Shown here piece after piece: positions 3,124 through 51,687 of a stretch of 64,000 nucleotides of DNA; position 1 is the first letter of the stretch; every line of letters begins with the position of its first letter. Position numbers and translations under genes: made by a program. The DNA is from an uncultured bacterium (GTDB lineage: Bacteria; Omnitrophota; Omnitrophia; Omnitrophales; Aquincolibacteriaceae): contig CAYSSX010000004.1 of the NCBI GenBank assembly GCA_964434115.1, positions 17,684 through 81,683 on the forward strand. Direction: 5' to 3'. The notes beneath the pieces are model-generated. The model was not told the DNA's origin. It saw nothing but the letters and a program-made list of their open reading frames with translations, and searched no databases.

Positions 3124-3188
3124 CTCTTTATTTAGAGGCAGTTTTCTTCCCTCCGCGTCAAGCAGCTCTCTAACCCCGTTTTCCGATC

Positions 3189-10984: not shown

Positions 10985-13900
10985 TTATGCGGCCTTGGCT
11001 GTGGCCTGGTAGGCGGCCAGATACGTCCCAACCGTCTCCGAAAGAAGGCTTTGAATCGACGGCATAAGGTAGCCCTGAGGTCCTGTTGAGGCAGTAACGC
11101 CGGCTTTGCGGAGGAAATCTGCCAGGATTTCTCCCCGTCGTTCGGACCCAAGCTGGTCTTTAAGCTCCACTGCGGCCAAAAGCTGAAGCTGGGTCATTCG
11201 GACCAGCAATCGCGCCTGGTCTTCTTCCCCTAACTTCCGGATTTCATCCGCGTTCAGAAGAAAAGCCGGAATAGACGCATCCAGAGATTCATCCCCCGCG
11301 GGTGCCTGAGCCAGCGAAACCGCCACGCTTTCCTGTTTTAAACGGTTGGCCATCACAGCCTCTTCCTGGGCACGAACTTCAAAAAGACGCTGTGCCGATG
11401 GATTTTTCTGAAAAACACCGTAGGTGAAAAAAGTCTCTTTGATTGCCGAGGCACCTTCTCCGGCAATGTAAACCACCGGCTGGGAAGGCACGTTAACTGC
11501 CCCCTGAACAAAAAGTTCTACAAACAGCTCACGGACCCGCGGCGAGACCGCCTGGAAAATCCTGGCGGGCAGAACGGCCTTCCCCCCTTGTGCAATTAAA
11601 TTGGAAAAGCTGCGGGCCAGACCTGTCTTTTCCCGCGCGTTGATTCTAAGCGGCCGCGCCTGAACAGAAGAGGGCATGAATGTCATCACACCCGGAAGTC
11701 CTTCAGCGGCAAAAGCAACAGGCAGAATTCCTGCGGTCATCTGAACCGCAACCGCCAGCCTTTGCTGTGTGCGGAAGTTACGGTCTTCTTCTGAAGGCGA
11801 AGCCAAACGAAGTTCGGAGCGCGCCATAAAAACAGTAGGTTCACCTCTGGGAGGTACGGCTTCTTTGCGCCAATTCAAATAGTTATCAACCTGGACTTCC
11901 GGTGACTGAAAAAGGATACGCATCGCTGCGGCCATAGTGCCGTGCCCGTAAAGAACAACCGTCTTGCCGGCATACTTTTCGTTGAGCTTGAGCAGAAGTT
12001 CCCGCGCACGGTCCAGCAGGGTAAGAAAATTTTCACCGCCAGGAGCTTTCATTAATGCATTCAGATTCCGGTAAGCTTCCATAAACTTCTTTTCTTCCGC
12101 GCCCATTTCAGCTTCAACTTCCGCAGCATCTTTTCCATCCCACTCCGCAAAATTAATTTCAATGGAGTCCGGCTCCACCTCTGCTTTTGCGGGAAGTCCC
12201 GGAACAGTCTTGACTGCCTCCGCCAAAGAAATCTCTGACGTTTGTTGTGTCCGGCGAAGCGGAGAGCGAAGGAAAACAAGACCTTCTGCTTTTAAGCCTT
12301 GCTGCTGGATCCATTCCGCAAGCTTCGAAGCGCCTTCCACAACCTGTCGTTTCCCATCCTCGTTAAGGAGGTTTTCATCTTTTGCGTCCGAATGTCCGTG
12401 AAACACGCCGCGCTTGTTGGCATCTGTTTCGCCATGAGGAATCAACACAAGGTTAAACGCGAGCGGCGGCTTCTCATAGCCGGGACGATAGCCGATCTGC
12501 CCGTCACGACTTTTGAGTTCAAAGCGGAGTTTCTCCAGCAAAGCCTGATAGGTCTGCATGTTCGCTTCGTCTCCCGGCCGAAGGCTGGCCGCCAAATAGG
12601 CTTCCTGCTCGGGGCCAAGTTCAAAAACGGCCCGTAAACGGTTCCTGTATTCAAGCGCGGGTTCTTTTCCGGAGAAAACCTTGAACATGGCCGCTGACCC
12701 CAAAACCGCAAGTTCACGGGGATCGGAATCACTGCCGGCTTCCGGTTTTTTGAATTTCATGATGATTCCGCGGTCCACACTTTTAATGACAAGGTTTTGG
12801 CTTTCGTCCCAGGAAAAGAAGAAATTGTCCGGACGGTAATCAATGTAAACATAACCGCCCTCCTTCAGGGATTCGATCAACCCCAGCCATTTTTCCGGAA
12901 ACTGTTCCTGGAAACGCTGGATTGCGGCATTATCAGCACCTTGAAGAAATCCAGGCAGGGTTTTCCCTTCTACAAACGTCATCACAATCGCTTCAGGCAT
13001 CGAAATGCCCAATTCATTCTCCTCTTCAAACACCTGCAAATTCCGGGGAATGACCTCCTTTTCTGGAGCATCCCCCACCTTGCTGAAAAAATTGTCATTC
13101 ACATCGATTTCAACAGAAAGCTGTCCCTGCGTGCTCATTTTGTCGACCGCATCCGTGATATCCAGACTCGTGCCGCCAATCACTTTCAGCACCACTTTTT
13201 GGCCGGTCAAAACATTTCGAAAAAGATAGGCGTCTCCAAAAGTACCGGCACCCAGTTTTTTAACAAACTCATAATCTTGGCCTTCAAGCCTGGCTTTATA
13301 CTTTTTAAATAATTCGAAGATGCTTTTTTGCGCACTTATAGGCCGGGTCGAGCCCGCGTCCTTGAAAGCTGGTATTTGTAATTCAATGGAATCGAGGATT
13401 GCTGCGGCTTCATCAAAGCGGGCCGCATCACCCAGCATCCGGGCTTCAAAGAAATTCAGGTTTTGCTGAATCAAAGGTTTTGCAGGATTCTCTATACGAT
13501 AGGCATTTATAAGCGAATGGGCCGCATCGTAATCCCCTTCGTCAACCTGTTTCGCAATCGCACGCAGACGCTGATGCTCCTCAAAATCCAATGATTCTGA
13601 AACCTTTGTTCCTTCTGCCTCGGTGCGGAGTTCGGAACGGAATAGCTGCGGAATTTCTTTTTCAGGGGCTGCAATGTCCCTCAGGCGGCCGATCGCCTCA
13701 GAAAGATCAAGATCCCGAATCTCGGCATCGACCTGCCAGTCTGTAGTCCTGCCCGTAACAGGCACAATGATATGTTTGCCCTCTTCCGCCAGAGCAGGCA
13801 GAACCTTTTCAAATTTTCTACCATAAACCGCATTGGTGAGCGGCAGAAAGGGAGAAAGTTCGGATTCGAGATAACGCTTCACACCCAGCGTTCCCACATA

Positions 13901-16900
13901 CCCGAGTCCAAGACTGAGAATCAAGCGCGCCATCCGGTTGTTGTCCTGATAAGGCACGCGCATGACCGCGTCCGCCATGCCGCGGACAATCGCATAAGTT
14001 GTCGGCTCGCCTGTTGCGGCAATGCCATCCACATAACGAAGTGCCGTGGGATCAAAAACAGCCTGGTCTTTGGGAATCAGGCGGCCCGCTTTAAGAGAAT
14101 TAAAAATATGATCCACGCCAGGAACCTGGGTCAGAAAAACCTGGATGCCCGGACGAATCAGTTTTGCCTGCGCAATCCCGCTGCCCAGTCCAGCCGAACC
14201 TCCCGGAACCCAAAAACGAACCTTGTCAAATTCCGCTTCGCTTCCGACAAATTGAGTAAAGGCCTGAAAGTCCGCGGAAGAAACGGGTGTTTTTCCCTTT
14301 GCCGAAACTTGCAAGCGAAACCACTGATCCAAAGCTTCAAGCATGATGACGGCATACGCCGCAACACCCATCGCAGAACCGTGCCGGATATAATGGGCGC
14401 TGTCAGGATGAGCTTTTGCGTATTGATCCACATACTGACTGGCATCTTTGTAAGCTTCAAAATAAGGGGCCTTGCTTTCGGCATCGATACGTGATCTTTC
14501 AGCCTCACTCGCTCGGGCATAGGCACGCAGTTCATCTTCAGAAAATTGACGGTTGACCACCACCGCGCCTAGATCCTTCATGGCTTTGACTTTTTCAGGG
14601 TTTGCGCCCCGGGGAACAAAAATGACCGCTGAAAGCTGCTGGGCATAAGGCGCATAATAAGGATGCTTTTTAAGCTTCTGCACCAGTGAGGCCACGGCCT
14701 TACCCTGATTTCCGGTAGATTCCGCCACCACCATTTCAAGCTGGGAAAGCTTCTCCGGATTTTCAAAGTAACGCGTAAGAAGGTCCGCTGCGAGGTAAGG
14801 TTTGAAAGAACCTTCCGGAAGTTCCGGCAAATAATAAAGGTAGTAGTGATTGTTACGGCCTGTCAGGCTCTTCATCGTCTGATTCAGCATCTCATTGCGA
14901 ACTAGAGGAATCTGAAACCGGCCTTCACGAAGATCATTCTCGCCAATCTCGCCGATCCCCGTCCAAAAATGCTTGAGGATTTTCTGGGCCCGCTCAATCA
15001 TTTCAAGCGTCACTCCGGGGAAAGGCGTTACCGGGCCTTCCCTGCGCCAGAGATTGCTTTGAACATCCACCAGATCACCCAGAGGGTAGCGAAGCTCTGC
15101 ACGCGGTAAATTGAAATGCGTTTCGTCCAGAAGGAAATGTTCCAGGGATTTCATTCCTTCGTTCAAGGCTTCCGCTTCATACCCCTTTTCTTTTAGCGAA
15201 TCTAAAAAAGTTTTGTGATTGTCATAAACACTGTCAGGCTCCTTGGCAAAAAAAGAGTTTAGAACGCGGGCCTGATGAAGAAGATCCACAAGGTCCCGGC
15301 CTTTCAAGGAATTCTTCTTTGCGCTCCGCAAAATTTTCTCAAAGACAACAACCGCATCAAGGAGTTTCGGGTAATAGATCTCAACGCTTCTTTGCCTTTC
15401 GCTATAACCCCGGGCGATTTCCCGGTCCATCAGGTCGATCAATCCGTCAAGTCTGGCCGCAAAAGGCGAAAGGCTGGAGGGTTTTTCGGATTTCCCAAAT
15501 TTTCTGAGCGCCCTGTCGGTATGAACTTGCGCGGTCGCCAAAATCTCAAGCACGTCTTCGTAAATCGTCACATCACCCATCGTATGCGTTCTGCTGTGCT
15601 CCGCGATTTCAGCAAGCCCTTCGGCAGCTTTCTTTGCCCTGAGCAGGGTGCGTGACTGCATGCCCTGGGATTTATCCAGAGCCAGGGCTTCCAGCGCAGG
15701 TTTCAGCAATCTGTTGAACACATGGTATTGAAAGGTCGGAGTGATCACCGCCAGGGCAAGACGGTAACGGTTGAAAACAACTTCAAGCTCCTGCTTGGCT
15801 GTGAGATCTTCGGGAATTTCAGCCAGTCCAAGTTCCTGGCTGTATTTTTCTTCCAGAAGATGAATACGCTCTTCGGCATACACGGCAGCCCGGCGGGCAC
15901 GGCTGACAGCTGCCGCATTGTTGCCTGGAGACTCCTGGTAATGTGCAGCCGAGGAATCCCAGCGGGAGCGGGCCTCGCGCCAATAGTGATAACTTCGGAC
16001 GAGGGTCACAAAGGAGTCAAAATCATTGTCTTTTCTCGCGCCCGCTTCATACTTCACCATTTGAAGGTCTTTGTGCATCGCGGCAAAAAGGTGCTGAAGC
16101 CCGATCGCGGTGTAAGGCGACAATGCCGCCTGGGTATCCCCCATAGCCAGCGCGAAAGCATAATTTTCCTGGTCATATTTAGGCCAGCCTTCCAGGACTT
16201 CTTTCTCGGCTTCGTCCCGAAAACCAGCCATCATCAGGAGTTTTGCCTGCAGGCCGCGGACCAGGAAAGGAGCCACCCCATCATCTCTTTTAGCCAATAC
16301 TTCCAGCGGTTCAAAAAACGCGGCGAGTTCTTGCGGACTTCCAAACCTTCGCCCTTGGTGCCAAAACTGATAGATCCGGTCCACAACGAGCGCCGCAGGA
16401 TTTTCGATGTCCCAGGGTGTTTTCTGCCGCGGTGTTTTTTTCTTGCTGCCTTGTTCTTTCGGCTTTTCAGGAATCAAACGGATCTGAAAAAGAGTCTGCA
16501 TCAGAAGATCAAGGACAGCATCTGATTCAGTAAAAGCCAAAAGATCTCCTGCCTGCTTTGCTTTTGCAATCGTAGCGTCTTGATCTGTATCTCGCACCCA
16601 GGGCGCCTGCTGCGCACGCAGCTCAGAACGTTTTCCGTCCGAGGGCTCATCCTGAACACCTTCCCGATCCAGACGTTCGGCAGCTTCTTCCTGATCAAGG
16701 TACAGGTTGAGTCTTCCCACCGCTTCCTCAAAAGCCCTTTTGTTGTTAAGTGCTTTTGCCGTTTCGACCTCATTTAACCGGAGACGGAGGTGCCAGGCTT
16801 TCTCAGAATCTCCAAGTTCTGGAGAGACGGCAATAGCTCCAAGGAATGAACTCATCAATTCTGCGGAACGGAAATAGATCACACCGGCTTTCTTTTCCCG

Positions 16901-19900
16901 GTTGTCGCCAACCACGTGGAAAGGAAGAAGCCCTGCCATAAGGCTTGCGTGTGTAAATAAAAGACGTTTGCGCCAGGCAATAGAGTCGGGCTCAAAAGGG
17001 AAAAGCTGATCACTGTCCGGATCCATGATGAATTCCATAAAATCTTTCGAAAATTGACCAATGCGCCCCAGCGTCATCAAGGTCCCGGAAGCTTCGTCAT
17101 CAAAATAATTAGCAAAAACTGCCGGCCCTTTATTCTGAGACGGGAAGTTTACGTCAAAATGAAAAGTATCATGATGGTCTAATGCCAGGTCGTAGTATCC
17201 GAAATAGTTGTGAATGAGTTTGGCAAAATCATAAAGCGGGTCATTTCCTTCCGGGATGTACTTTGGATCGATCAGTTTGAATCCTTGAACTTTTCCGCTT
17301 CGAAGGTATTCAAAGGGATCAATAAGAATATTTCCGGTGTGTAAATCGCCATGCTGCTTGGCTAAATAGGGCGGCTTGAAAAGTTCCGGGTGGAGCTGAT
17401 TGATCCTCCGGAAAACACGAAGCATCGTCGGAAGATTGAGAAGCAGCGGTTCCTTTTCCCCTTTCATCTCCAGATAAGGCGCAGCAAGAAGCTTTTTCAT
17501 CCAAGGAGACTTTTCCGCGGCCTCCCGCCAGCGCTGCTCCAGTTTCTGAAAGTGGTATTTCTCGGCAAAATCTTCCGGAGTTGGACTTTGCTCTTGTGAA
17601 TAAAAATCCGGCGTCAGGGTTCTATAAATATGCTTGATGGTTTCCAAGAGGCTTTGATTGGTTCCAAGATGCCCGCCCATCATACGGCCAAAAGCATCAT
17701 CACCGCTCGGGAAAGCCTGCTGAATCATGCTGGACAAGCTGGGCCATGAAAGATCCTGCATCCTGACTACTGTCCAGCCGTCATGCTCTTCAACGGAATA
17801 AATTTCAGGGAACCACCGCCCCGCAGGATTTCCGGTTTTTTGAAGATCCTGCATGTACCGGGCTTCTGCCAGAAGCTTTCCTTTATCCTCTTGTGTTTTA
17901 GCACGTTTTTCGATAACCGTTGTCCCATCGGTATTAATAATCCTTTGCACCTGACTGTAGGAACCGCCCGCGAGTTCTGTCTTGACCGTTTCATCGATTT
18001 CATAGTCAGAGCTTCGCTGCGTCGGAATCCAGAGCCTGAAAACACGGCCGAAAGATGACGCTTCCATATAGCCATAACTCAACAGGTAAAGCATGGATTT
18101 GTTTCCTGCAAAAGAAGGAAAGAGAGAGATTTCCACATGAGGTTCTTTTCCCATCGTCATGGGTTTCAAAAAAATGATGCCGTCTTTGTCTTCGGGAATC
18201 CCCATCAACATGGAATCAATCCCGCGTTTGAAACGAATGGCATTGGAAGGTTGAAACGGGATATCGCGGCTTAGCTGCCTGTACATTTCCTCGCGTTCGG
18301 ACGCGCTCCAGACTTTCACGCCTTTCTCTGAGGCCCCGGGCAGATTTTCCGTCCGTCCGACAAACGCCCAGCGGATATTCCGGCTTTCAAGCGCTTTCGA
18401 TATCTTTTCTACGGCTTCAAAATTCCGGGTTTCAAGCGCTGCATAAAGTTCTTGAAAAAAACCTTCATCCGGAACCGAATGCATCGGTATCAGGTAGCGC
18501 AAAACATCGTCAAGGGGGGTCGGCCGGATTGTATTTCTCATTTTGGCGTCTTGAGGCCTTTGGACAGAGGGGCCTGTCCCGGGAGCCTCATCTTCGTCAT
18601 GGTGCCACATCCGAGTTGAAGTGAGATTATTTCCCGGAGGTTCGTCCCATGATGGATATAGTTTTTCATAAGCAGTACGGACAGCTTCCGTGAACGTATA
18701 ACGGGTCAAAGCTTCCGAACCGTTGAGCTGAACGATACCGCCGCGGTGATTGTTGATGGACTGAAGCGTCACGCCGGCAACATCGCCAGCCCAAACAGGG
18801 TGCCGGACCTGATGGTCATCCAGAACGAGTAGATTCTCGCTTCTTCCCTCCATCCATTGAATCGCGGAATGAAAAGGATCCCTTTCCTGTCCGGTTTTAG
18901 AACCATAAACCCAGCCCAAACGGATCACGGTGTTCCCAGTTTTACTCAGTACCGCTTTTTCTCCTGCGACTTTTGTCTCACCGTAAAAATTCAGCGGTTT
19001 TGTTTCAGCCTTCGGTTTATAGGGCGCCTCGGTCCCGTCAAAAACATAATCGGTAGAAAAATAAACCATCTGCCCGGGAAATGTTTGGGCAATCCGTTCA
19101 GGCACGGAAACATTCAAGAGCTCCGCGCGGGCCTTATCTTTTTCAGCCTCCTCAACACCCGCAACGCCGGCAGCATAAACCACCACATCAGGTTTCAGTC
19201 GATTTAAAAGGGCGTCCACCTCTCCGTCCTGGGTAACATCCAGCTTGATAAGATCCTCATCTTCTGAGGAAAAGGACGTTCCCATCACCTGGGGATACAC
19301 CCTCCGGAGCAAATCATACACCTCGCGCCCCACCCTGCCGCTGGCACCTAACACAAGCACTTTACGGGGAGGAAAAAGCATTTCGAAAAGCAGACCTTCG
19401 CGCAAAGCGTGCTCCCCGCCGCTGTTTTCCTCCAACGCCTTCAAAAGTTCCCGGCTCAGGAAAAGCCGGTTTGCTGTTTCGTCGTAATAGGCTGCCACTT
19501 GGCCGCGTTCCTCATGGTCGATCCAATCAAAAAGGTAAATCCCGAACTCTTTTTCCCGTATCTTTTTCAACCTCTTCTCGTAGGCTTCCGTGAGCCAGCG
19601 TTCCAGGGCGAAGGGGACGTTCCGCTCTTGGTAAGCCCTTTGTAAGGCTGCCAACAGCGTTCCGGTAAGTTCCGGGTGCGGGGGCTGCGCTTCAATTTCA
19701 GCGCGCCGGTCAGAGAAAACTCTAAGGGGCTCCTCTCCCACCCTTATCCACCTGGGCGATAGGATTGCGGCATCCGCGGCACGTTCACGCAGCGTTTCAG
19801 CATCGCCGAACGCAAGGGGTTTCATGTCAGCGTCTGCACGAAGTTCTGCACGGCTTCCTATTAAATCTTTGGCGGCTGTCAATTTTTCAACCTTGCGAAT

Positions 19901-22900
19901 ACCCTGTGCCTCGGTCCAATGAGCAAGTGCCACGGCTTCGCTCTTCCGGTTCAAAGCCACCAGGCTAGTAATCTTGAGATCAAGCGCGCTTGAGTCCCGG
20001 GGCTCACGGAGCAAAAGGGCTTCAGCCTCCGTCAATGCCTGTTCGAATTTCGGCTGTCCGTTTCTCCTCTGGCGGGTGATGTGCTGTCCCCAGTGATAAA
20101 GCACCCAGCCTTTTTCGACCGCCAGGAAAGGGCTCCAGGGGTCCACGTTTTCAAGGGCTTCGTTCAAAATCTGCAAGGCTTCGTCATACCGGTTGGGCTG
20201 GCTATGGTCATAGCGCCGCGTGTTTGACATCGCGACAATCACACGGGATAAGGTCGAAAGCTGCACATCGTAAGGCATGTCCTCTTCATCCACATTCCGG
20301 ACATCCTCAGCGATTGCTTCATAAACCTGAAAAGCTTCGAAGTTTCTGCCTTGCTGCTGAAGACTCCGCGCTTTCTCAATCCCCACGCTGACACTATGCA
20401 TAAAATCATTGAGTGAGCGGCTGTGCTTACGAACGTATTCAAGCCCTCGGCGATTCATCTCACGCCACACAAACGCACCATAAACATTCATGCGGCGGAT
20501 GAAGTCTTGGGAAAGCGCCGCTTTGTCAGCGTCCTCAAGCCCCAGGGTTTCAAGAACTTCCGGAAAGGCTTTAACCTCTGCATCCTCAAAAACATCTTGG
20601 GGCAATGAGTAAGACTTCAGTTTTTCTCTAACCTTGATCTCCAGATTGTCCAAATCCTTCCAGGCTGAAGCCACCCGGGCTTTGCGGAATCCTTCCGCCA
20701 CGCGGTCCATAAGTGCGTCTAATTGATCAAGCAGCGCTTCGCGGCGGTCCTCAACCAAGCGGGCCGAAACGATTTGCTGAGTCATTTGAATTACCAGTTC
20801 AGATCCTTGAAGGGTTTCCCGGTCATAGGCCGCCGCACCGGCCAAAAGTTTTTCTTCAAGCTTTGGTAAAAGAGAGTCAAAATCAGGAACCGGTTCAATC
20901 TCAGCACTTGATTCCCCGGTCTGAGAAGTTTCCTGCGCTTGGCGCGTCCCAACCGCTGACTTCACTTTCCCAACGGACGGCAAGGCGGCCGTCTCTTCCG
21001 CTCCAAGACGACGGGCCGCGTCTTCAATTTGAGAACGCAAGGCATCGCCGTCAAAAACACTTTCGGCCAGCAGGCTGGACGCAGCGCTCAAAGCGTCACG
21101 GGCTTCTGAAGTTTGCCCTTTTGAAGCATAAACCCCTGACTGCTTAACCCATAGCTCCGCCAGCAAGCGGGTGGTCTCGGGCTCCGGCGAAATCAGCCAA
21201 ACGAGATTGTCCGCGGTCAAAAGGGTGTCTTCCAAAAATTCCGCTTCATGATAAATTCCGAGAAGATAGCGGACAGCCCGGTTTCTTTCCGCATTGTCGC
21301 GGTCCAAATCCCAGACAATGGCCGTAAAAACAGTTTGTGCAAGATCCTCTTTTCCGGCTGCCCAATTCGATTCTGCCAGGGCCAGAGCGTCGGGTGTTCC
21401 ATTCACCGCGCCATCCACAGCCCATGGGGAAGAAGCCCTTTCTTCAAATTCCTCCTGCAGTAAAACAACAAGGTCCGCGAGCCTACGCTGCCACAAACGT
21501 CTGTCTAAATTATCTAAAAATTCTTTCTCTTGAATAACCCGCCCGAACTCAAGCGCTTCCGGACGCTGCGGAATGGTTTGTCCCGTCAAAATCATCCGCT
21601 TCCAATGATCCCGAAGCTGCTTTTCAAGAACCGCAAACCCCTCGGTCAAATCCCTTATGGCGCGGGCATGTTTCTGCTGGGCCTCCAGTTTTTTCGCTTC
21701 CAGAGCTTCACGGGCTGATCGGGCAGCTGCGGCCTGCTGTTCTTTTTGGACGCGAAGCGTCTCAAGCTGCTGCTGAATAAGGGAGCGGGCTTCGACAACC
21801 CATACTGCCTGAACCGTTTGCTCAGAAAAAAGCCCGGCCATTTCATGTTCCAGAGAAGCCTCGCGGAAAATTCGCGACTCATCCGCTTTTAATTCGCGGT
21901 CAAAATCCTGAAGGATTTGTTCAAGACGCCGGACGCTTTCTGCTTTTGCTGCCTGACGGCGCAGAAATTCCATTTTTGTTGAAAAGGAACGCCGGAAACG
22001 ATCGACCGCGTCGGTAAGTTTTTGTTCAGGGGTTACTTGCGCTTGAGTTTCTTCTGGAGTAACAGCGGCAGGCACCGGAAGGACTTCCATTTCTTCTTGC
22101 TCAGCAGGCAGTAAAATTTCATCTTTCTTCAAAACTTGCGCCGGCTCGCCGGTTTCATCTTGATCCGCCACCGGGGCTTCAGATCTCCCCCGGAATCCGG
22201 AAAGGGACTCCAGGAGTCCGCGGTAAAGACGCGCCGCAAGCTGAAGAACCGCTGCTTTTAAGGCACTCAAAACATTCCGGATTTTTTCTCTCAAAGGCAG
22301 GCGCATATCCTGCGGCCAGGCCTTGCCAAGCTCTGCACTGTCCGCACCCTCCCGAAGGAGAATGCTACGTTCAATCAGTGCCAGTTCATAAGCCAATCTG
22401 TTTTCAAGAATCTTTTCAATCCGTTCAGCACGCCGGAGCTGCTCGCCCTTATAAACCCCCGAAGCTTCACCTCCGAACACTAAGGAAGAGACGGTGGCAA
22501 AAAGGCCGGGCTCATCGTCTTTTTTCCTTTTAAATTTTTCTTTGAATTCTTTAGTCAGTTTTTGGCGGGCTTTCAAACGCTGGGAGGGCTTCCGATCAGA
22601 CGACTGCGTCCGGTACTCCGCGGCGGCTGCCCGAATGGCTTCCACCCGATCATCATAATCATCGAGAATAATGCGCCGGTAAACAAGACGAAACCGGTAA
22701 AAGGCCAGCACGGTCACCACGGCGGTTCCGGCCAAAGCTCCCGCCCAGAAAAGAGTCTCGTTAGTCTCAAAATCCCTCAGCTCGGAACGGGCGCCGGCGC
22801 CGTCTTCTCCTTCTGGGAGATCCTCTCGCGCGGCCTTGGCAAAAGACGCGAGAAGCCTTCTTTGCTGGGTTTGATTCCCTGAACTGAGAACCGTCCGGCG

Positions 22901-25900
22901 CTTGGGAATCCAGGTGTTCAAAAGCTGCTGTGCCAGACGGTAGTACCGCCGGGCTTTAATGGAAACCCCGCGAAGAATCTGCTCCGCGGCATTCAGATCC
23001 CCATGTTCAAAAGCAACACGGGCCGCTTCATAGGTTTCTTCAGAACGGATTTTTTCCCGCCACACACGCGACAGATCAAACGGGTATTTGTATTTCGATT
23101 TCAATTCCTTTTCCAGACTAACAGCCTCGCGGGTTCCCCCCGCATACTCCCCGCCTTCCATTTCATAAATGTAGGCATCCTTGATCTGCGTCCGGGTTTT
23201 GGAATGCACAATAAAAATCAATTTCTTCTCTTCCGGAAAATGCAGAAGCGTCACCGGATGATCGCGGTATTCGCCGGGGAGCTGATAATCTCTTCCTTTA
23301 ATTTGAAGACGTCCGGCATTGTCGCCCCGGGCGTGAATCGTAAACCCGGTCACTTGCCCCGCATGTTTCTCGAAAGTTTCACTTTGAATCCGAAGCTTAT
23401 ACGAATCCAAAGATTTTCCCTGGAAATCACGGAGCACAAGAAAGTCGTGGGTGGCTTTGGGCCGGCTTTTGTTTTCAGCCAATCTCACGGACACAACACG
23501 CTGCGGGGTTTTGGCTGTTTCGCCGGCAGTTTCTGTTTTTTCCATTTCAAAAACATACGGAGCTGCGGGCGGAAGATTTTTCCACTCATCGGTTCTGATC
23601 AAAACGCCATTTTCCAGGGCCGCCGACATCCAAACGCCGTCTTTGGATGCATCCGCGACCTGAACACCGGTAATCGGAGCGCCTAACGAAGCCCTTCCGT
23701 AACTATCCGCTTTAAAACGTGTGATCGTGCCTGTGAAACTGCCGATCTTGTCATAAAACCCTTCGCGGGCAACATCCACAAGAGCGCCGCTTTCATTGCG
23801 CTTCAAAATAAGGTCATAAGTCTTGTCTCCCACCTTCACGGAAACAGGCGTTCTTCCCTCCAGGGTGACTTCCGCTTTTTTTAGTCCGGCGGCGCCCGGG
23901 GCGACATAAATATTTTTTCCGGGAACGCGGACATACGCCGTGTCATGAGCACTCCCGCGCTGGGATTTTTCGCGTCCCAGCAGAAACCCCTTCACCACGC
24001 CTCGGAAATCCTCGGAAGGCGCCCAAATTCCATCCATGCGCATGACAAAAAAGCCTTTCCGTTTTTTCCCCTCCTCATCGTAAACCTCGTAGACAGGATG
24101 CACCGTTGCGGAGGCATCAATCACCTTGAGAAGATTTCCCTGGGCATCCGTGATGACGCGGAATTTATTCTGTGGATTCTGAACATCAAAGTTCTGGGTG
24201 GTCAAAACCCAAAAGGTCTCTTCCGGAAATTGCGGGTGGGTAAAGGTGTAGTCCGGGGAAACAAAAAAAGAATCGTTGCTGCGCGAGAATCCGAGGGTCT
24301 CGGACTCAATAAAACTGAAAAGATAATTATTGTCTTCAACCGTGTTTTCATAGAGACGGATCTGGCGGAGCCCCTTGTCTCCCGGAAGAGCATCTTCTTC
24401 AAGGATGACGGTTTTACCTTCAAGCGATTTTGGGAAACTCAACTTCACAGCGTCTCTCGACAGCGGCAGCCAGGGATTGGCCCCTTTAAAGAAATCCGAG
24501 CCCAGAGGGATTTTAATCCGGGTCCTGTCATCATCCGCCGCAGGAAGATCTTCTGCCTGAAGGGCCCGGAGAAGTTCTTCCCGCTCTCTCGGAGAAGAAA
24601 ACGGGCGAACGGAATCGCTTTTAGGCCTCGCAGAGAACCTTTTAGGCTGGGGACGAAGCGGGGTTGCGGTTTTTCTGATCGTTTGCTTACGGGCTTCCCT
24701 GCGGCGCTCAGACTCTGCAGCTTCAACACGGCCGAGGGCGTCAGCAATAAGGCGGTCGGCATAGGGGGATTCCATATTCCGGCGGCTAAAATCCAAAAGC
24801 TGGCCAAGAGTTGATCTTTCGCGCTGTTCTTCCAGCAGAGGGAGCAGCTTTGAGAGATTTCCATCAAGCCAATCCGTTAAGGTTGAAAAAAGAATCCGGA
24901 CCGTATTGAGATCGCTCTCTTTCCCAATAAGCTCTCGAACCTCGGTTTCGTAGCGGACAAATTTGAGGAAGACATTAATCGTGGGGTCTTGTTTTTTACG
25001 TCCAGGAGTTTTTTTGAGTCCTGTTAACAGGTCAATGTCATCATAGACAGCGGCCAAATCCTTCCAGGGTTTTTGAGCGCGTAATTCTGACCGCTGGGTT
25101 TCCTGGACACTTTTAAGCGAGGTCTCAACCTGGTCCCCATAGGCCCATGTTGAATAAGTTCGGCTAAACTCAAGGAGCTGGCCCAGCGTCTCAACATCTT
25201 TGTTCTGTTCCAGCAATGAAAGAATATCGTACAGGTGTTTCTCAAACCAATCCGTAAGCGTTGAATAGAAAGTGCTCTTATTTTTACGAATGCTCCGGCG
25301 ATCACTTCCTGCAGTCAGCAGAGCTTCAAGTTCTTTTTGATGCCGTATGAACTTCAAGAAAATTTCAGCTTCGCTGGGCCTGAACGTTTTACTGCTTCCA
25401 GCGAGCCGGTCAACAGCCTTATACGCCTCGTCCAAATCCTTCCAGACTTTTTGAACACGCAATTCGGCCCGCGAAGATTCCGTTTTTTGCTGAAATTTGA
25501 AAGAGGTCCGGGGAAGCGCACCCAGTTCAGCCCCCCGCTGAACAATCGCCTGTTCAAGAGCTTCACGGCGTGACGCGATAGCCGCCGGCAGATCCCCTTG
25601 CCAATCACTCATCCACTGCGCCGCGCGAATCTGAAAACGAGAAAGGTCAAAGGGTCCTGTTTTCCCAGTCATAGCCGCCTGATACTTTTCCGAGCCTGAG
25701 AAATCTGAAAAATGCGGGGAGAGCACGGCATACGGCAGGTTATGTTTGCGGAAAGCCTCTGTCATTCCTTTGCGGTGAAAGCCGCCCGCAACAATAACGA
25801 CACTTCCCGCAGGCGAAGCCGGATCCAAAAGCCTGCTGATCACGGGTGCGGCCATCACCGTGTCCCGTTTCATGGCCAGCGTGTAAAAACGCGCCGCCTG

Positions 25901-27196
25901 ATCCGCGAGGGTTCTTAGTTCGGAAGGGATTTTTTTCTGGCGCGGGAAACGCTCCTGCCAAGACTGATACTCCTCCTGGGTGAGTTCCAGAGAGAAAAGT
26001 TTTTTCAAAAGCAGGTAATCACGGAACGCTTCCAGGATGTCTTTTTCTGAAGTTTTCTTCTGAAGCTTCTCAAAAATCCGGTTTCTTAAGAGTTCTTTCT
26101 CCTTAAAAAGCAAAGGCGCCTCAACCTCTTCTGCCAAAACACATCCCCCCTGCTGAAGAACCAGCTGTGGGTAATCTTCAAAACGGAAGCCCTTGGCGGA
26201 CGCTTGCTGATAAAATTTTTCCCAGACTCGCCGCCGATCCAGCCCCGAAGCTTCGCCGCTTTTTTTTCTGAGAAGAAATTGCAGATCTTCAGTTTCCGCG
26301 GTAAGGCTATTTTCCTCAATCCAATTCAGGAGTCCGGCCGTTTCCTTCTCAACCGCAGCCTCTTCAACCAGAGACTGCCGTCTCATGGCTTCAAAAAAAC
26401 GGACAAGCATCGGCCACTGGAGCTGAAGCTTCGGATCCCCCCATTTCGCGCCTAAAATCTCCCGGGATTTTTTTTGAAGATCATTAAGATCCTGTTCAAG
26501 GCTTGCCTTTCCCTTTTCGTAATCGACCCAAGCGCTGAAAGAACGGTAAAGCTCCGGAGTCATGCTGCGGGAGGCTGCCCTTTCGATCTCTCCCAGGTGT
26601 TTCTCAAGGAGTTTTGAGGATTTCTCACGGGAAGCCATAACCGTCTGATAAACATTCAAATTACTCAGATAAAGATCTTTGCTTTCTAAACCAAATGCTT
26701 GGGCGGGGGATGCGTTTGGAGTTTCAGAATCCCTTTGCGAGAGCAGAAAAAGCTCGGGGCCTCCGGCCTCTGATTCCTGAAGTAAAAACTCGGCCGCTTG
26801 CCTATTGAGTTTTCTATCCTCGAAAAAACGAAGTCTGTCAATTTCCAGCTCACCGATTCCCCCTTCTATAAAAATCTGGCGGACACCTTTCTTTTCCTGC
26901 AAAAAATCCAGCATCCCTTCCATATTTTTTTGAGCTTCCTGAATCCCATGCGGATCCTGAATAAAAAGAATGCTTTTTTCGGGAAGTTCACGGAGGCCCT
27001 TCGGAAGCCAGACTTCATCAAGGGTTCCTAATAAAGCGGGTAAGCTGCGAAGATCGTTTGGCGCAATCAGGGTTTCTGCGGCTCTCGGAGAAGGCATCAC
27101 AATCTGCGGAACCTGCGCTAAGCCCGTATCTTGAAAAAGCAGGCAAAGGGCTGTCAATATCGCGAGTTGTTTTTTTGCCCGGAAAAACAATTTCAT
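10985..27196 (-). CDS. Giant multidomain protein, 5403 aa, with a signal peptide, a single TM helix and mosaic enzyme-like domains.
   Basis: A single uninterrupted ORF of 16,212 nt; codon counting confirms 5403 aa. N-terminal signal peptide MKLFFRAKKQLAILTALCLLFQDTGLAQ. TM helix at aa 1481-1504. Recognisable domains are listed as separate features below. Confidence 0.85.
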   Translation of the reverse strand: MKLFFRAKKQLAILTALCLLFQDTGLAQVPQIVMPSPRAAETLIAPNDLRSLPALLGTLDEVWLPKGLRELPEKSILFIQDPHGIQEAQKNMEGMLDFLQEKKGVRQIFIEGGIGELEIDRLRFFEDRKLNRQAAEFLLQESEAGGPELFLLSQRDSETPNASPAQAFGLESKDLYLSNLNVYQTVMASREKSSKLLEKHLGEIERAASRSMTPELYRSFSAWVDYEKGKASLEQDLNDLQKKSREILGAKWGDPKLQLQWPMLVRFFEAMRRQSLVEEAAVEKETAGLLNWIEENSLTAETEDLQFLLRKKSGEASGLDRRRVWEKFYQQASAKGFRFEDYPQLVLQQGGCVLAEEVEAPLLFKEKELLRNRIFEKLQKKTSEKDILEAFRDYLLLKKLFSLELTQEEYQSWQERFPRQKKIPSELRTLADQAARFYTLAMKRDTVMAAPVISRLLDPASPAGSVVIVAGGFHRKGMTEAFRKHNLPYAVLSPHFSDFSGSEKYQAAMTGKTGPFDLSRFQIRAAQWMSDWQGDLPAAIASRREALEQAIVQRGAELGALPRTSFKFQQKTESSRAELRVQKVWKDLDEAYKAVDRLAGSSKTFRPSEAEIFLKFIRHQKELEALLTAGSDRRSIRKNKSTFYSTLTDWFEKHLYDILSLLEQNKDVETLGQLLEFSRTYSTWAYGDQVETSLKSVQETQRSELRAQKPWKDLAAVYDDIDLLTGLKKTPGRKKQDPTINVFLKFVRYETEVRELIGKESDLNTVRILFSTLTDWLDGNLSKLLPLLEEQRERSTLGQLLDFSRRNMESPYADRLIADALGRVEAAESERRREARKQTIRKTATPLRPQPKRFSARPKSDSVRPFSSPREREELLRALQAEDLPAADDDRTRIKIPLGSDFFKGANPWLPLSRDAVKLSFPKSLEGKTVILEEDALPGDKGLRQIRLYENTVEDNNYLFSFIESETLGFSRSNDSFFVSPDYTFTHPQFPEETFWVLTTQNFDVQNPQNKFRVITDAQGNLLKVIDASATVHPVYEVYDEEGKKRKGFFVMRMDGIWAPSEDFRGVVKGFLLGREKSQRGSAHDTAYVRVPGKNIYVAPGAAGLKKAEVTLEGRTPVSVKVGDKTYDLILKRNESGALVDVAREGFYDKIGSFTGTITRFKADSYGRASLGAPITGVQVADASKDGVWMSAALENGVLIRTDEWKNLPPAAPYVFEMEKTETAGETAKTPQRVVSVRLAENKSRPKATHDFLVLRDFQGKSLDSYKLRIQSETFEKHAGQVTGFTIHARGDNAGRLQIKGRDYQLPGEYRDHPVTLLHFPEEKKLIFIVHSKTRTQIKDAYIYEMEGGEYAGGTREAVSLEKELKSKYKYPFDLSRVWREKIRSEETYEAARVAFEHGDLNAAEQILRGVSIKARRYYRLAQQLLNTWIPKRRTVLSSGNQTQQRRLLASFAKAAREDLPEGEDGAGARSELRDFETNETLFWAGALAGTAVVTVLAFYRFRLVYRRIILDDYDDRVEAIRAAAAEYRTQSSDRKPSQRLKARQKLTKEFKEKFKRKKDDEPGLFATVSSLVFGGEASGVYKGEQLRRAERIEKILENRLAYELALIERSILLREGADSAELGKAWPQDMRLPLREKIRNVLSALKAAVLQLAARLYRGLLESLSGFRGRSEAPVADQDETGEPAQVLKKDEILLPAEQEEMEVLPVPAAVTPEETQAQVTPEQKLTDAVDRFRRSFSTKMEFLRRQAAKAESVRRLEQILQDFDRELKADESRIFREASLEHEMAGLFSEQTVQAVWVVEARSLIQQQLETLRVQKEQQAAAARSAREALEAKKLEAQQKHARAIRDLTEGFAVLEKQLRDHWKRMILTGQTIPQRPEALEFGRVIQEKEFLDNLDRRLWQRRLADLVVLLQEEFEERASSPWAVDGAVNGTPDALALAESNWAAGKEDLAQTVFTAIVWDLDRDNAERNRAVRYLLGIYHEAEFLEDTLLTADNLVWLISPEPETTRLLAELWVKQSGVYASKGQTSEARDALSAASSLLAESVFDGDALRSQIEDAARRLGAEETAALPSVGKVKSAVGTRQAQETSQTGESSAEIEPVPDFDSLLPKLEEKLLAGAAAYDRETLQGSELVIQMTQQIVSARLVEDRREALLDQLDALMDRVAEGFRKARVASAWKDLDNLEIKVREKLKSYSLPQDVFEDAEVKAFPEVLETLGLEDADKAALSQDFIRRMNVYGAFVWREMNRRGLEYVRKHSRSLNDFMHSVSVGIEKARSLQQQGRNFEAFQVYEAIAEDVRNVDEEDMPYDVQLSTLSRVIVAMSNTRRYDHSQPNRYDEALQILNEALENVDPWSPFLAVEKGWVLYHWGQHITRQRRNGQPKFEQALTEAEALLLREPRDSSALDLKITSLVALNRKSEAVALAHWTEAQGIRKVEKLTAAKDLIGSRAELRADADMKPLAFGDAETLRERAADAAILSPRWIRVGEEPLRVFSDRRAEIEAQPPHPELTGTLLAALQRAYQERNVPFALERWLTEAYEKRLKKIREKEFGIYLFDWIDHEERGQVAAYYDETANRLFLSRELLKALEENSGGEHALREGLLFEMLFPPRKVLVLGASGRVGREVYDLLRRVYPQVMGTSFSSEDEDLIKLDVTQDGEVDALLNRLKPDVVVYAAGVAGVEEAEKDKARAELLNVSVPERIAQTFPGQMVYFSTDYVFDGTEAPYKPKAETKPLNFYGETKVAGEKAVLSKTGNTVIRLGWVYGSKTGQERDPFHSAIQWMEGRSENLLVLDDHQVRHPVWAGDVAGVTLQSINNHRGGIVQLNGSEALTRYTFTEAVRTAYEKLYPSWDEPPGNNLTSTRMWHHDEDEAPGTGPSVQRPQDAKMRNTIRPTPLDDVLRYLIPMHSVPDEGFFQELYAALETRNFEAVEKISKALESRNIRWAFVGRTENLPGASEKGVKVWSASEREEMYRQLSRDIPFQPSNAIRFKRGIDSMLMGIPEDKDGIIFLKPMTMGKEPHVEISLFPSFAGNKSMLYLLSYGYMEASSFGRVFRLWIPTQRSSDYEIDETVKTELAGGSYSQVQRIINTDGTTVIEKRAKTQEDKGKLLAEARYMQDLQKTGNPAGRWFPEIYSVEEHDGWTVVRMQDLSWPSLSSMIQQAFPSGDDAFGRMMGGHLGTNQSLLETIKHIYRTLTPDFYSQEQSPTPEDFAEKYHFQKLEQRWREAAEKSPWMKKLLAAPYLEMKGEKEPLLLNLPTMLRVFRRINQLHPELFKPPYLAKQHGDLHTGNILIDPFEYLRSGKVQGFKLIDPKYIPEGNDPLYDFAKLIHNYFGYYDLALDHHDTFHFDVNFPSQNKGPAVFANYFDDEASGTLMTLGRIGQFSKDFMEFIMDPDSDQLFPFEPDSIAWRKRLLFTHASLMAGLLPFHVVGDNREKKAGVIYFRSAELMSSFLGAIAVSPELGDSEKAWHLRLRLNEVETAKALNNKRAFEEAVGRLNLYLDQEEAAERLDREGVQDEPSDGKRSELRAQQAPWVRDTDQDATIAKAKQAGDLLAFTESDAVLDLLMQTLFQIRLIPEKPKEQGSKKKTPRQKTPWDIENPAALVVDRIYQFWHQGRRFGSPQELAAFFEPLEVLAKRDDGVAPFLVRGLQAKLLMMAGFRDEAEKEVLEGWPKYDQENYAFALAMGDTQAALSPYTAIGLQHLFAAMHKDLQMVKYEAGARKDNDFDSFVTLVRSYHYWREARSRWDSSAAHYQESPGNNAAAVSRARRAAVYAEERIHLLEEKYSQELGLAEIPEDLTAKQELEVVFNRYRLALAVITPTFQYHVFNRLLKPALEALALDKSQGMQSRTLLRAKKAAEGLAEIAEHSRTHTMGDVTIYEDVLEILATAQVHTDRALRKFGKSEKPSSLSPFAARLDGLIDLMDREIARGYSERQRSVEIYYPKLLDAVVVFEKILRSAKKNSLKGRDLVDLLHQARVLNSFFAKEPDSVYDNHKTFLDSLKEKGYEAEALNEGMKSLEHFLLDETHFNLPRAELRYPLGDLVDVQSNLWRREGPVTPFPGVTLEMIERAQKILKHFWTGIGEIGENDLREGRFQIPLVRNEMLNQTMKSLTGRNNHYYLYYLPELPEGSFKPYLAADLLTRYFENPEKLSQLEMVVAESTGNQGKAVASLVQKLKKHPYYAPYAQQLSAVIFVPRGANPEKVKAMKDLGAVVVNRQFSEDELRAYARASEAERSRIDAESKAPYFEAYKDASQYVDQYAKAHPDSAHYIRHGSAMGVAAYAVIMLEALDQWFRLQVSAKGKTPVSSADFQAFTQFVGSEAEFDKVRFWVPGGSAGLGSGIAQAKLIRPGIQVFLTQVPGVDHIFNSLKAGRLIPKDQAVFDPTALRYVDGIAATGEPTTYAIVRGMADAVMRVPYQDNNRMARLILSLGLGYVGTLGVKRYLESELSPFLPLTNAVYGRKFEKVLPALAEEGKHIIVPVTGRTTDWQVDAEIRDLDLSEAIGRLRDIAAPEKEIPQLFRSELRTEAEGTKVSESLDFEEHQRLRAIAKQVDEGDYDAAHSLINAYRIENPAKPLIQQNLNFFEARMLGDAARFDEAAAILDSIELQIPAFKDAGSTRPISAQKSIFELFKKYKARLEGQDYEFVKKLGAGTFGDAYLFRNVLTGQKVVLKVIGGTSLDITDAVDKMSTQGQLSVEIDVNDNFFSKVGDAPEKEVIPRNLQVFEEENELGISMPEAIVMTFVEGKTLPGFLQGADNAAIQRFQEQFPEKWLGLIESLKEGGYVYIDYRPDNFFFSWDESQNLVIKSVDRGIIMKFKKPEAGSDSDPRELAVLGSAAMFKVFSGKEPALEYRNRLRAVFELGPEQEAYLAASLRPGDEANMQTYQALLEKLRFELKSRDGQIGYRPGYEKPPLAFNLVLIPHGETDANKRGVFHGHSDAKDENLLNEDGKRQVVEGASKLAEWIQQQGLKAEGLVFLRSPLRRTQQTSEISLAEAVKTVPGLPAKAEVEPDSIEINFAEWDGKDAAEVEAEMGAEEKKFMEAYRNLNALMKAPGGENFLTLLDRARELLLKLNEKYAGKTVVLYGHGTMAAAMRILFQSPEVQVDNYLNWRKEAVPPRGEPTVFMARSELRLASPSEEDRNFRTQQRLAVAVQMTAGILPVAFAAEGLPGVMTFMPSSVQARPLRINAREKTGLARSFSNLIAQGGKAVLPARIFQAVSPRVRELFVELFVQGAVNVPSQPVVYIAGEGASAIKETFFTYGVFQKNPSAQRLFEVRAQEEAVMANRLKQESVAVSLAQAPAGDESLDASIPAFLLNADEIRKLGEEDQARLLVRMTQLQLLAAVELKDQLGSERRGEILADFLRKAGVTASTGPQGYLMPSIQSLLSETVGTYLAAYQATAKAA
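11897..12463 (-). other. Histidine phosphatase (phosphoglycerate-mutase superfamily) domain, aa 4912-5100 of the giant protein.
   Basis: LVLIPHGETDAN matches LVRHGETxxN, with Arg apparently replaced by Pro. The second catalytic His is present in VVLYGHGTMAA. Confidence 0.5.
12497..13279 (-). other. Eukaryotic-type protein-kinase-like domain (atypical), aa 4640-4900 of the giant protein.
   Basis: Gly loop LGAGTFGDA, checked in DNA at 13235-13252. VVLKVI matches VAIK. IDYRPDNF matches HRDLKPEN, with the catalytic D and N retained. IKSVDRG matches IKIxDFG, with DFG changed to DRG. Confidence 0.5.
13877..14869 (-). other. PLP-dependent fold-type II (Trp-synthase beta / threonine-synthase-like) domain, aa 4110-4440 of the giant protein.
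   Basis: PEGSFKPY matches the PLP-lysine motif PxGSFKDR. ESTGNQGKAVA matches SxGNxG. VPGGSAGLGSGIA is a Gly-rich phosphate-binding loop. Confidence 0.5.
16937..17509 (-). other. Aminoglycoside/choline-kinase-type phosphotransferase-like domain, aa 3230-3420 of the giant protein.
   Basis: Brenner-type catalytic motif HGDLHTGNILID, with a downstream LIDP metal-binding-like motif. Checked directly in the DNA at 17330-17353. Confidence 0.5.
18677..19366 (-). other. RmlD-like (dTDP-4-dehydrorhamnose reductase / NAD(P)-dependent epimerase) domain, aa 2611-2840 of the giant protein.
   Basis: VLVLGASGRVGREV matches the Rossmann GxxGxxG. MVYFSTDYVFDG matches the RmlD FSTDYVFDG motif. NFYGETKVAGEKAV matches the catalytic YxxxK region. 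Confidence 0.6.
22685..22756 (-). other. Predicted single transmembrane helix of the giant protein (aa 1481-1504).
   Basis: LFWAGALAGTAVVTVLAFYRF is followed by RLVYRR (positive-inside). This predicts about 1480 aa outside the membrane and about 3900 aa in the cytoplasm. Confidence 0.5.
24722..25480 (-). repeat. Two tandem ~125-aa repeats in the N-terminal extracytoplasmic part of the giant protein (aa 573-825).
   Basis: Copy 1 (aa 573 onwards) is RAELRVQKVWKDLDEAYKAVDRLAG...STLTDWFEKHL...LGQLLEFSRT. Copy 2 (aa 700 onwards) is RSELRAQKPWKDLAAVYDDIDLLTG...STLTDWLDGNL...LGQLLDFSRR. The DNA copies are about 80% identical. A third short RSELRAQQAPWVR copy lies at 16592-16630. Confidence 0.7.
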
Positions 27197-27413
27197 TATT
27201 TTAAGCCTCTCTGAAACCGTAGCAGGATGAGTCTGAAACTTTATCGCTATTGCTGGCTGGAGAATAAGTGGCTAAAAAGATACGTGCCAAAGGCCCGTTT
27301 TTCAAGCGAGCGGGCAAATATTCAACGGGATTTCTTAAGTCCCTCAGTGAGTAAAACAAACCCTCGATAAGAATGTTTTAAAACGGCAGGGCCTGATCAA
27401 CGTTGATCGTTTC

Positions 27414-51685: not shown

Positions 51686-51687
51686 AC

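Follow-up and report, generated by a model that had tools for sequence, protein, structure and literature searches.

A 64,000-nucleotide stretch of the chromosome of an uncultivated Omnitrophota bacterium (contig CAYSSX010000004.1; hereafter the window) contains a giant gene whose product is built of modules that meet at a short, strictly kept peptide motif. The gene is an open reading frame (ORF) on the minus strand (10985..27196), which starts with ATG and runs without interruption through 5403 amino acids (aa) plus a stop. It belongs to a family whose chains consist of a signal-peptide-like segment and a head domain of TIKI/Ere-like fold with an invariant His-Glu-Arg-His set, followed by variable modules. 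The modules are delimited by the strict motif R-[S/A]-E-h-R, which lies in unconserved linkers of low model confidence. In other words, conserved short sites recur at module boundaries in exposed linkers, as in polyproteins. Judged from sequence, the chances are about even (probability ~0.5) that the motif copies are endoproteolytic processing sites and that the gene is a polyprotein with separately targeted products. A first-pass annotation of this DNA overlooked both the motif and the head domain. It had described the gene as one uninterrupted frame encoding a mosaic of enzyme-like modules, an uncharacterized protein of an uncultivated lineage in which giant genes are known to occur, and this description holds.

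The motif was found as R[SA]ELR in eight copies in the giant protein against 0.05 expected, and all six frames of the window are free of it elsewhere. When position 4 is left free (R[SA]ExR), the eight observed copies compare with 0.44 expected, and the 13,189 residues of the window's other genes contain none. Numbered from the N-terminus, the copies are RAELR at aa 576-580 (25457..25471; this and all other features of the giant gene lie on the minus strand), RSELR at aa 702-706 (25079..25093), RSELR at aa 1470-1474 (22775..22789), RAELR at aa 2449-2453 (19838..19852), RSELR at aa 3523-3527 (16616..16630), RAELR at aa 4032-4036 (15089..15103), RSELR at aa 4520-4524 (13625..13639), and RSELR at aa 5126-5130 (11807..11821). 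The copies are located between recognizable domains. In the structure model of the C-terminal module, motif 8 falls where the predicted local distance difference test score (pLDDT) is <50, and in the model of the N-terminal domain (N-domain) motif 1 directly follows a tail (aa 559-575) with pLDDT <50. The synonymous codons vary among the copies; therefore, the constraint acts on the peptide and not on the DNA.

The same motif emerged from an unbiased search for enriched 5-mers downstream of the N-domain in 143 family members, none of which had been used to notice it. The top-ranked 5-mers were RSEMR (539x), RSEVR (287x), and RSELR (227x), along with RSEAR, RSEIR, RSETR, RSESR, and RAEVR. The top R[SA]ExR 5-mers were enriched 90-540x and were also the commonest 5-mers outright. 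In a set of 152 family proteins there are 1,054 copies, with at least one copy in 139 proteins, and the number of copies increases with protein length (r = 0.73). Their placement is far from uniform. The first 500 aa hold only 4 of the 1,054 copies; the first copy lies at a median residue of 615, directly after the N-domain, further copies follow at a median spacing of 220 aa, and the last one lies a median of 278 aa before the C-terminus. The motif is also strict: family-wide, RSEhR is enriched 182x and RAEhR 34x, and there is no enrichment when position 5 is Lys (0.6x), when position 3 is Asp (0.7x), or when the first Arg is missing (1.1x). Position 4 is restricted to L/V/A/M/I/T/S. The flanks are nearly free of information, with small residues before the motif and S/A/T and then acidic residues after it. 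A lineage variant is seen in P0063, a family member of 6474 aa, in which 11 copies of R[N/P/K/V/Q]ELR and seven of HxELR replace R[SA]ExR.

The motif is largely confined to genes of this family. Across 80 related loci, ORFs with an N-domain contain 1.53 copies per 1000 aa and other ORFs 0.30. Most copies in the other ORFs (47 of 57) are found in eight ORFs with at least two copies each, and seven of these eight are cut by the edge of the locus. Among the eight, one is a neighbouring family gene and one is an N-domain gene continued across an assembly gap. In the remaining ordinary neighbours the density is ~0.06 per 1000 aa, which is about chance level.

How do the motif copies relate to the evolution of the protein? 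When family members are compared by BLAST, 28% of the homology blocks begin no further than 10 residues to either side of a motif, vs 4.8% in position-shuffled controls. An orthologue of 5436 aa (P0041), present on six independently assembled contigs, is co-linear with the window protein at 52-58% identity. All eight motifs are kept in position in P0041, although identity drops to ~35% in the 30 aa that flank them. Module 6 of the window protein is replaced in P0041, where the stretch bounded by the corresponding two motifs has no BLAST match to it at E<=1e-8. A shorter relative of 2351 aa (P0001) is a positional orthologue because its locus is syntenic with the window, the order being uvrA, a helix-turn-helix (HTH)-cupin gene, a ComEA-like ORF, the gene itself, glyQ, glyS, the pyruvate-phosphate dikinase gene, and rpoD. 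P0001 matches modules 1-3 and then, at the RSELR corresponding to motif 3, skips directly to the PALP module, which is followed by the histidine phosphatase and the C-terminal module. As a result, aa 1475-4031 of the window protein can be described as three cassettes between two motif copies. A motif is also present at the start of each unit of a tandem repeat in the window protein. These alignments show modules to have been gained, lost, duplicated, and replaced exactly at the motifs.

The head domain (aa ~47-520; 25637..27058) was modelled with AlphaFold from a 22-sequence alignment, and the model is confident (pLDDT 82.8; predicted template modelling score 0.76). It consists of a parallel beta-sheet core flanked by helices, and the core is split by a helical insertion of ~285 residues. 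The modelled core resembles structures of the TIKI/Ere/ChaN/TraB group, which makes the assignment of a TIKI/Ere fold likely. The domain has no Pfam or NCBIfam match at E<=0.1 (TraB, Erythro_esteras, and Cofac_haem_bdg included), and its profile has no PDB sequence match. H83, E111-G112, R444, and G471-G472-x-H474 are invariant in 153/153 sequences. According to the RRSP structure paper, members of the TIKI superfamily share a His-Glu catalytic pair, which is His85/Glu113 in BcR135; TIKI and RRSP are sequence-specific endopeptidases, and Ere proteins are esterases (PMC6254334). In sequence, H83 and E111 are separated by 28 residues, exactly as the BcR135 pair is. The N-domain thus shares with TIKI, TraB, PrgY, erythromycin esterase, ChaN, and RRSP a core fold, a His...Glu pair at this spacing, and a further His within a motif of GxxH type (GGFH in the N-domain). 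However, it differs from the superfamily in having no detectable sequence similarity to any member, in the large insertion that splits its core, and in heading multi-module chains, at or near the N-terminus in the 150 best matches listed. From the sequence pattern it is concluded that H83, E111, R444, and H474 constitute a putative conserved active site of hydrolase type, and we infer that the N-domain may act as a protease.

The modules were surveyed by splitting the protein into nine pieces, which were scanned against Pfam and NCBIfam. Module 2 (aa 581-701; 25094..25456) is a unit of ~126 aa and the first copy of a tandem duplicate; it is 40% identical (E 6e-27) to aa 703-~830 and accounts for the repeats that the first-pass annotation had placed in the N-terminal region. 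Module 3 (aa 707-1469; 22790..25078) comprises the second repeat copy and a large module of unknown fold with no Pfam or PDB match, and it is conserved in P0001 (48%) and in P0041. Module 4 (aa 1475-2448; 19853..22774) has a transmembrane (TM) anchor followed by ~950 aa that look mostly helical or coiled by eye; it is of no known family and is absent from P0001. Module 6 (aa 3528-4031; 15104..16615) is likewise of no known family. The absence of any Pfam, NCBIfam, or PDB sequence match in aa 1-2450 and 3528-4031 agrees with the long linkers without recognizable family that had been noted before.

Four of the five enzyme domains proposed in the first-pass annotation score above their Pfam cutoffs. 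An NAD(P)-binding short-chain dehydrogenase/reductase domain (aa ~2612-2843; 18668..19363) matches RmlD_sub_bind (PF04321; E 2e-43, 148.8 bits vs a cutoff of 27) and contains GASGRVG, STDY, and YGETK. Its score against the NCBIfam rmlD equivalog TIGR01214 is 148 bits, under the cutoff of 224, and on this sequence evidence the domain is to be named RmlD-like and not RmlD. A phosphotransferase domain resembling APH and choline kinases (aa ~3074-3328; 17213..17977) scores 26.0 bits against PF01636 (cutoff 23.2) and has the sequence HGDLHTGN. The pyridoxal phosphate (PLP) fold-type II domain, PALP (aa ~4128-4426; 13919..14815), matches PF00291 (E 4e-15) with GSFK, STGNQG, and GGSAG, reaches no NCBIfam equivalog cutoff, and is 64% identical to the PALP module of P0001. 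An indexed search gave one match with the N-domain alignment and none with the PALP module, not even the 64% identical P0001, a limitation of the word index that makes the result uninformative on free-standing homologues. The histidine phosphatase (branch 1; aa ~4916-5092; 11921..12451) matches His_Phos_1 (PF00300; E 8e-23, 81.5 bits vs a cutoff of 21.7). Its signature IPHGETDAN (aa 4916-4924; 12424-12450) keeps the His and has Pro for the canonical Arg of RHG; the same Arg-to-Pro change is present in P0001 (IPHGVTDAN). The PHG sequence suggests altered chemistry or an altered substrate. The fifth call, a kinase-like region resembling eukaryotic protein kinases (aa ~4642-4818; 12743..13273; absent from P0001), has a Pkinase (PF00069) score of 22.9 bits, below the cutoff of 31.7; the diagnostic motifs GxGxxG, VxLK, and DxxPxN are nevertheless kept (GAGTFG, VVLK, DYRPDN). 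The RmlD-like and APH-like domains share one module, as do the kinase-like region and the histidine phosphatase. All these domains are termed "-like" and not named as enzymes because no NCBIfam equivalog cutoff was reached. A single pathway (threonine, cobalamin, or sugar-nucleotide) was considered and rejected; all NCBIfam matches are far under their equivalog cutoffs, and no pathway was assigned. The suggestion of a machine for signalling or cell-surface modification found no specific support either, other family members carrying unrelated cargo.

Targeting segments are distributed along the chain. The N-terminus (aa 1-~27; 27116..27196) reads MKLFFRAKKQLAILTALCLLFQDTGLA/QV, the slash marking a small -3/-1 site after a basic n-region and a hydrophobic core of ~11 residues; the model shows a helix at residues 2-21 and then a disordered stretch, and the signal peptide proposed earlier is retained as a signal-peptide-like segment. 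A TM-like helix with a Kyte-Doolittle value of 1.83 (aa 1481-1499; 22700..22756) opens module 4 and is followed by YRFRLVYRR. The last module opens with a hydrophobic signal- or anchor-like segment (aa 5147-5165; 11702..11758) that follows RNFRTQQR (RNFRTQQR-LAVAVQMTAGILPVAFA/AE), ends in AFA/AE, is weaker than the helix at aa 1481-1499, and has equivalents in P0041 and P0001. The single TM helix of the first-pass annotation is therefore strong at aa 1481-1499 and is not the only hydrophobic segment. Read as one chain, the window protein would consist of a signal peptide, an outside part to aa 1480, a TM segment, an inside part from aa 1500 to 5146, the hydrophobic segment, and again an outside part, whereas P0001 would have a signal peptide, an outside part to ~aa 2102, a TM segment, and an inside part. 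The single-chain reading places homologous PALP, histidine phosphatase, and C-terminal modules on opposite sides of the membrane in the two proteins. P0001 has no TM segment before its PALP and histidine phosphatase modules, and the fixed order of an outside region, one TM helix, and a string of cytoplasmic enzymes that had been proposed is unsafe. Across the family, 36% of TM-like segments start no more than 60 residues past a motif, against an expectation of 12.7%. It appears from the sequences that anchors open the modules at their N-terminal ends, the place where they would be expected in a free-standing protein.

The chain closes with a confidently modelled alpha/beta domain (aa ~5183-5403; 10988..11650), for which no convincing PDB relative of its fold was found. 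Clear homologues of the C-terminal module were detected by hidden Markov model in only 4 other proteins of the 152, and profile-profile comparison gave partial links to other C-terminal clusters (83% and 30% probability). With so few homologues and only partial links, a C-terminal domain universal to the family is not claimed. Separately, 106 of the 152 family proteins end in Ala, 92 of them in -AA or -SA, after an amphipathic helix, and the window protein ends in ...ATAKAA (10988-11005). The Ala C-terminus looks like a conserved tag; one guess is that it serves as a recognition signal for a PDZ-protease or of ClpX type.

The family to which the gene belongs is very large and apparently had not been described. 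With the N-terminal 1470 aa as query, eight relatives of 1.6-2.4 kaa were obtained, in which only the first ~550 aa are common. The eight carry different enzyme domains, seven of them carry the same kind of motif at 30-170x expectation, and the three that are named in the source databases are all from Candidatus Omnitrophota/Omnitrophica. The N-domain profile, searched exhaustively against 1.84 billion representatives, matches 9,639 clusters, 6,324 of them at E<=1e-30; the proteins of the 150 best matches listed range from 565 to 7,823 aa. The window ORF matches this profile with 644 bits (E 3e-195) over aa 27-545 of the stop-to-stop frame and has multiple downstream R[SA]ExR copies, the first at aa 576, which are the two features that define the family. 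The first-pass annotation had not recognized the architecture as that of a described protein family; the gene is in fact one of thousands of related genes, and a class of "multi-enzyme metabolic clusters" has already been published. A scan of species-representative genomes yielded the 80 loci mentioned above, nearly all in Omnitrophota metagenome-assembled genomes, often 3-4 per genome and sometimes in tandem, with a few labelled Auribacterota, Elusimicrobia, or Planctomycetales. The same genome scan with the window's own N-domain found no close relative. Cargo in twelve other members includes glutamate dehydrogenase (GDH), phosphoglucose isomerase (PGI), fructose bisphosphatase (FBPase), phosphoglucomutase (PGM), UDP-glucose pyrophosphorylase, a sugar transferase, methyltransferases, DUF218, dockerin, and HEAT repeats. 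The cargo is unrelated across members; therefore, the common denominator is an architecture for delivery or processing and not a pathway.

Several observations concern the loci of the family. Family genes sit inside core housekeeping operons, that of the window being upstream of glyQS, and a subgroup (for example L018, L033, L034, L039, and L048) lies directly downstream of the pyrimidine operon (carA, carB, pyrC, pyrK/pyrD, pyrF). Pairs in tandem or on the same contig are L045/L077, L011/L048, and L023/L075. Large edge-cut ORFs upstream of N-domain genes hold up to 16 motif copies. An apparent gene fission in L056 (~12580-12700) was discarded because the split is due to a run of N, either a scaffold gap or a masked stretch.

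What would a polyprotein of this kind look like? Cutting at R-[S/A]-E-h-R would release the modules as separate proteins, each of which would bear its own targeting, since anchors or signal-like segments tend to follow a motif. Cutting of the window protein would thus yield an exported head domain; membrane-anchored pieces; soluble cytoplasmic products comprising the RmlD-like reductase with the APH-like kinase, the PLP enzyme, and the kinase-like region with the histidine phosphatase; and finally an anchored or exported C-terminal domain. The N-terminal hydrolase-fold domain may be the processing enzyme, at least at sites within its reach, and it is the only universal candidate for a protease. 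By analogy with TIKI and RRSP this assignment of the role to the head is conceivable, though rather doubtful.

A number of points weigh against the polyprotein reading. Cleavage of the giant chain is deduced from sequence, and the searched papers contain no demonstration of it for this family. An exported head with a signal peptide cannot reach motifs 4-8 in the cytoplasmic middle of the chain, and cutting at these five apparently cytoplasmic motifs would require another protease in the cytoplasm or action during translation. A search for linked protease genes, both in the window and among the recurrent neighbours at the 80 related loci (the pyr operon, dxs, fabF, sensor kinases, and a permease), found none. 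The fold of the head has weak Foldseek support (E 0.07-0.26), and the TIKI superfamily also includes esterases and non-enzymes (PMC6254334). Some long members, such as P0008 and P0087, have few or no canonical motifs, and P0087 (3052 aa) has none. Some domain boundaries, for example those within the RmlD-like/APH-like and the kinase-like/phosphatase modules, are without a motif. Finally, the TM and signal calls come from hydropathy and sequence reading and not from a dedicated predictor.

An unlikely but serious alternative is that the chain stays intact as a membrane-anchored multi-enzyme scaffold, with the motif as a hinge or docking element that organizes or regulates the tethered enzymes and that may bind, for example, the N-domain, a chaperone, an insertase, or a partner protein. 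Giant Omnitrophota proteins are usually taken to be single membrane-associated chains, and peptides of one giant ORF have been detected. For the window gene alone, a single-chain topology fits the positive-inside rule, and the lack of a linked protease is as expected for a chain that is not cut. However, a docking motif alone leaves unaccounted for the clustering of anchors after motifs, the presence of homologous modules on opposite membrane sides in orthologues, and the functionally unrelated cargo across members. Furthermore, a strict Arg/Glu/Arg, a small or aliphatic position 4, and location in disordered linkers are typical of protease recognition sites.

It is improbable, but worth weighing, that the protein is an exported effector array similar to MARTX toxins, in which the chain would enter a host or prey cell, its modules would be freed there at the motifs, and the TM-like segments would insert into the target membrane. 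Omnitrophota have been proposed to be episymbionts or predators, giant genes have been tied to that lifestyle, and enzymes that require ATP or NAD(P)H would fit a host cytoplasm. The architecture resembles that of MARTX in its conserved flanks that include the head, exchangeable central modules, putative processing sites in the linkers between them, and an N-domain fold shared with the MARTX effector RRSP. However, neither RTX repeats nor the inositol-phosphate-activated cysteine protease domain were found in the giant protein with Pfam/NCBIfam, the site motif is a different one, and no linkage to a secretion system was found. The cargo is like that of central metabolism (PGI, FBPase, GDH, PGM), and the genes belong to the core genome, within housekeeping operons (glyQS here, pyr elsewhere) at 3-4 per genome.

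The motif could also be a passive scar of DNA recombination that shuffles cassettes, with no function in the protein, and the gain, loss, and replacement of cassettes exactly at the motif is what a scar would leave. This explanation is very improbable because synonymous codons differ freely among copies, Arg, Glu, and Arg are strict with only small or aliphatic residues at position 4, and all eight sites survive ~50% divergence amid the poorly conserved flanks of P0041; no DNA-level repeat is implied, and selection is at the level of the peptide. An assembly chimera or a fusion of pseudogenes has practically no standing, given the even GC content, the shorter orthologue P0001 in its syntenic locus, the same layout in thousands of family members, and above all the independently assembled co-linear P0041, which strongly disfavours a chimera. 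Misassembly of the giant ORF is thus unlikely, and from 5403 stop-free codons at ~51% GC we infer that a chance origin is ruled out.

If the polyprotein reading is correct, two kinds of system are useful for comparison. In flaviviruses a membrane-threaded chain is cut at short basic motifs by the viral protease on one side and by signal peptidase on the other. The giant protein is similar to viral polyproteins in being one translation product with short strict sites of Arg followed by a small residue, internal signal or anchor segments right after sites, and predicted products on both sides of the membrane. It differs in that the family is cellular, chromosomal, and multi-copy, and in that cleavage here is read from sequence and the protease is a candidate. 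In multi-core precursors of ribosomally synthesized and post-translationally modified peptides, such as the cyanobactin precursor PatE, the cassettes are flanked by protease recognition sequences. Repeated hypervariable cassettes bounded by a conserved short recognition sequence are common to these precursors and the giant protein; however, the cassettes of the latter are folded domains of 100-1000 aa and not peptides of 6-8 residues.

Giant proteins of Omnitrophota have been published, including the "multi-enzyme metabolic cluster" class (Nielsen & Lui 2026 bioRxiv 10.64898/2026.06.07.730766; West-Roberts et al. 2023 bioRxiv 10.1101/2023.11.21.568195; Seymour et al. 2023 PMC10066038). The window protein resembles them in being one ORF tiled with unrelated enzyme Pfams, in its signal peptide and TM content, and in coming from the same phylum, and it differs in its length of 5403 aa, which is under the thresholds of 7,000-10,000 aa used in the literature. 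West-Roberts et al. suspected cleavage, stated the cut points to be unknown, and found N-terminal regions mostly without recognizable domains, except for C39 and S8 (10.1101/2023.11.21.568195). The words motif, cleavage, linker, and polyprotein are all absent from the text of the 2026 preprint (10.64898/2026.06.07.730766). Neither the inter-module motif nor the TIKI/Ere-like N-domain is reported in the searchable papers on Omnitrophota giant genes, and no paper in the searched literature joins Omnitrophota with TIKI, TraB, or Ere or names the motif in this context. A literature search for the motif matched nothing but the R package varSelRF and a signature of PL7 alginate lyases, which is unrelated. 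Within the searchable literature, then, what is new about this known phenomenon is the motif and the head domain.

The surroundings of the giant gene are those of an ordinary chromosome, and no signs of mobile elements were found in the window. Two overlapping sigma-70-like promoter matches (27261..27305, minus strand; consensus match only) lie upstream of the ORF. Directly upstream is a ComEA-like ORF of 106 aa (27479-27799, minus strand) with a signal peptide and a helix-hairpin-helix, both read by eye, which is closed by a strong terminator-like hairpin (27427-27452, minus strand); a gene matching Pfam HHH_3 occupies the same position beside P0001 (locus L001). Further upstream are a divergent HTH-cupin regulator, uvrA, a panCD/aspartate dehydrogenase region, recO, ybeY, tRNA synthetases, and others, and downstream on the same strand follow glyQ, glyS, pyruvate-phosphate dikinase, and rpoD. 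In L001 a further ORF of 1817 aa without a Pfam match (25115-27056, plus strand) starts a few genes downstream of P0001. Elsewhere in the window, a signalling cluster (51682-58373) encodes a GAF-SpoIIE phosphatase, a GAF-HATPase kinase, a CHASE2-adenylate/guanylate cyclase, and a FecR-domain protein. The genome may also encode a module for respiration or extracellular electron transfer, as suggested by a multihaem cytochrome c7/c3-like ORF with a 1054-aa 4Fe-4S/molybdopterin-binding-like ORF after it (60051-63738, plus strand). One tRNA gene is present (3050-3123, plus strand; Rfam RF00005, 58 bits). Three minus-strand ORFs of 448 aa (48416-49762), 273 aa (35117-35938), and 163 aa (47875-48366) have no Pfam match at E<=1e-3 to 1e-4.

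Whether Omnitrophota giants are single chains or are cut up is a published puzzle, and the lack of known cleavage points is stated to block its analysis. A strict and hugely enriched motif that bounds the modules offers specific candidates for those points and makes the question directly testable. It permits giant proteins to be split in silico for structure and function prediction, and it permits targeted proteomics and a test of enzyme-site pairs. Whatever the mechanism, the N-domain defines a family of >9,000 sequence clusters without a Pfam model. Should cleavage be confirmed, a free-living or episymbiotic bacterial lineage would routinely express housekeeping enzymes as polyproteins, and the exchange of cassettes at the sites would be a mode of genome evolution. 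A broader proposal, which is tentative, is that of a system spanning the phylum, in Omnitrophota and a few neighbouring candidate phyla, in which metabolic enzymes, anchors, and exported domains would be made as single chains and cut at R-[S/A]-E-h-R by the TIKI-fold head or by a co-evolving dedicated protease, with the cassettes as units of gene-content evolution. If this proposal is true, viral polyprotein expression would have an equivalent in cellular life, and the cleavage code for the giant proteins of Omnitrophota would be at hand.

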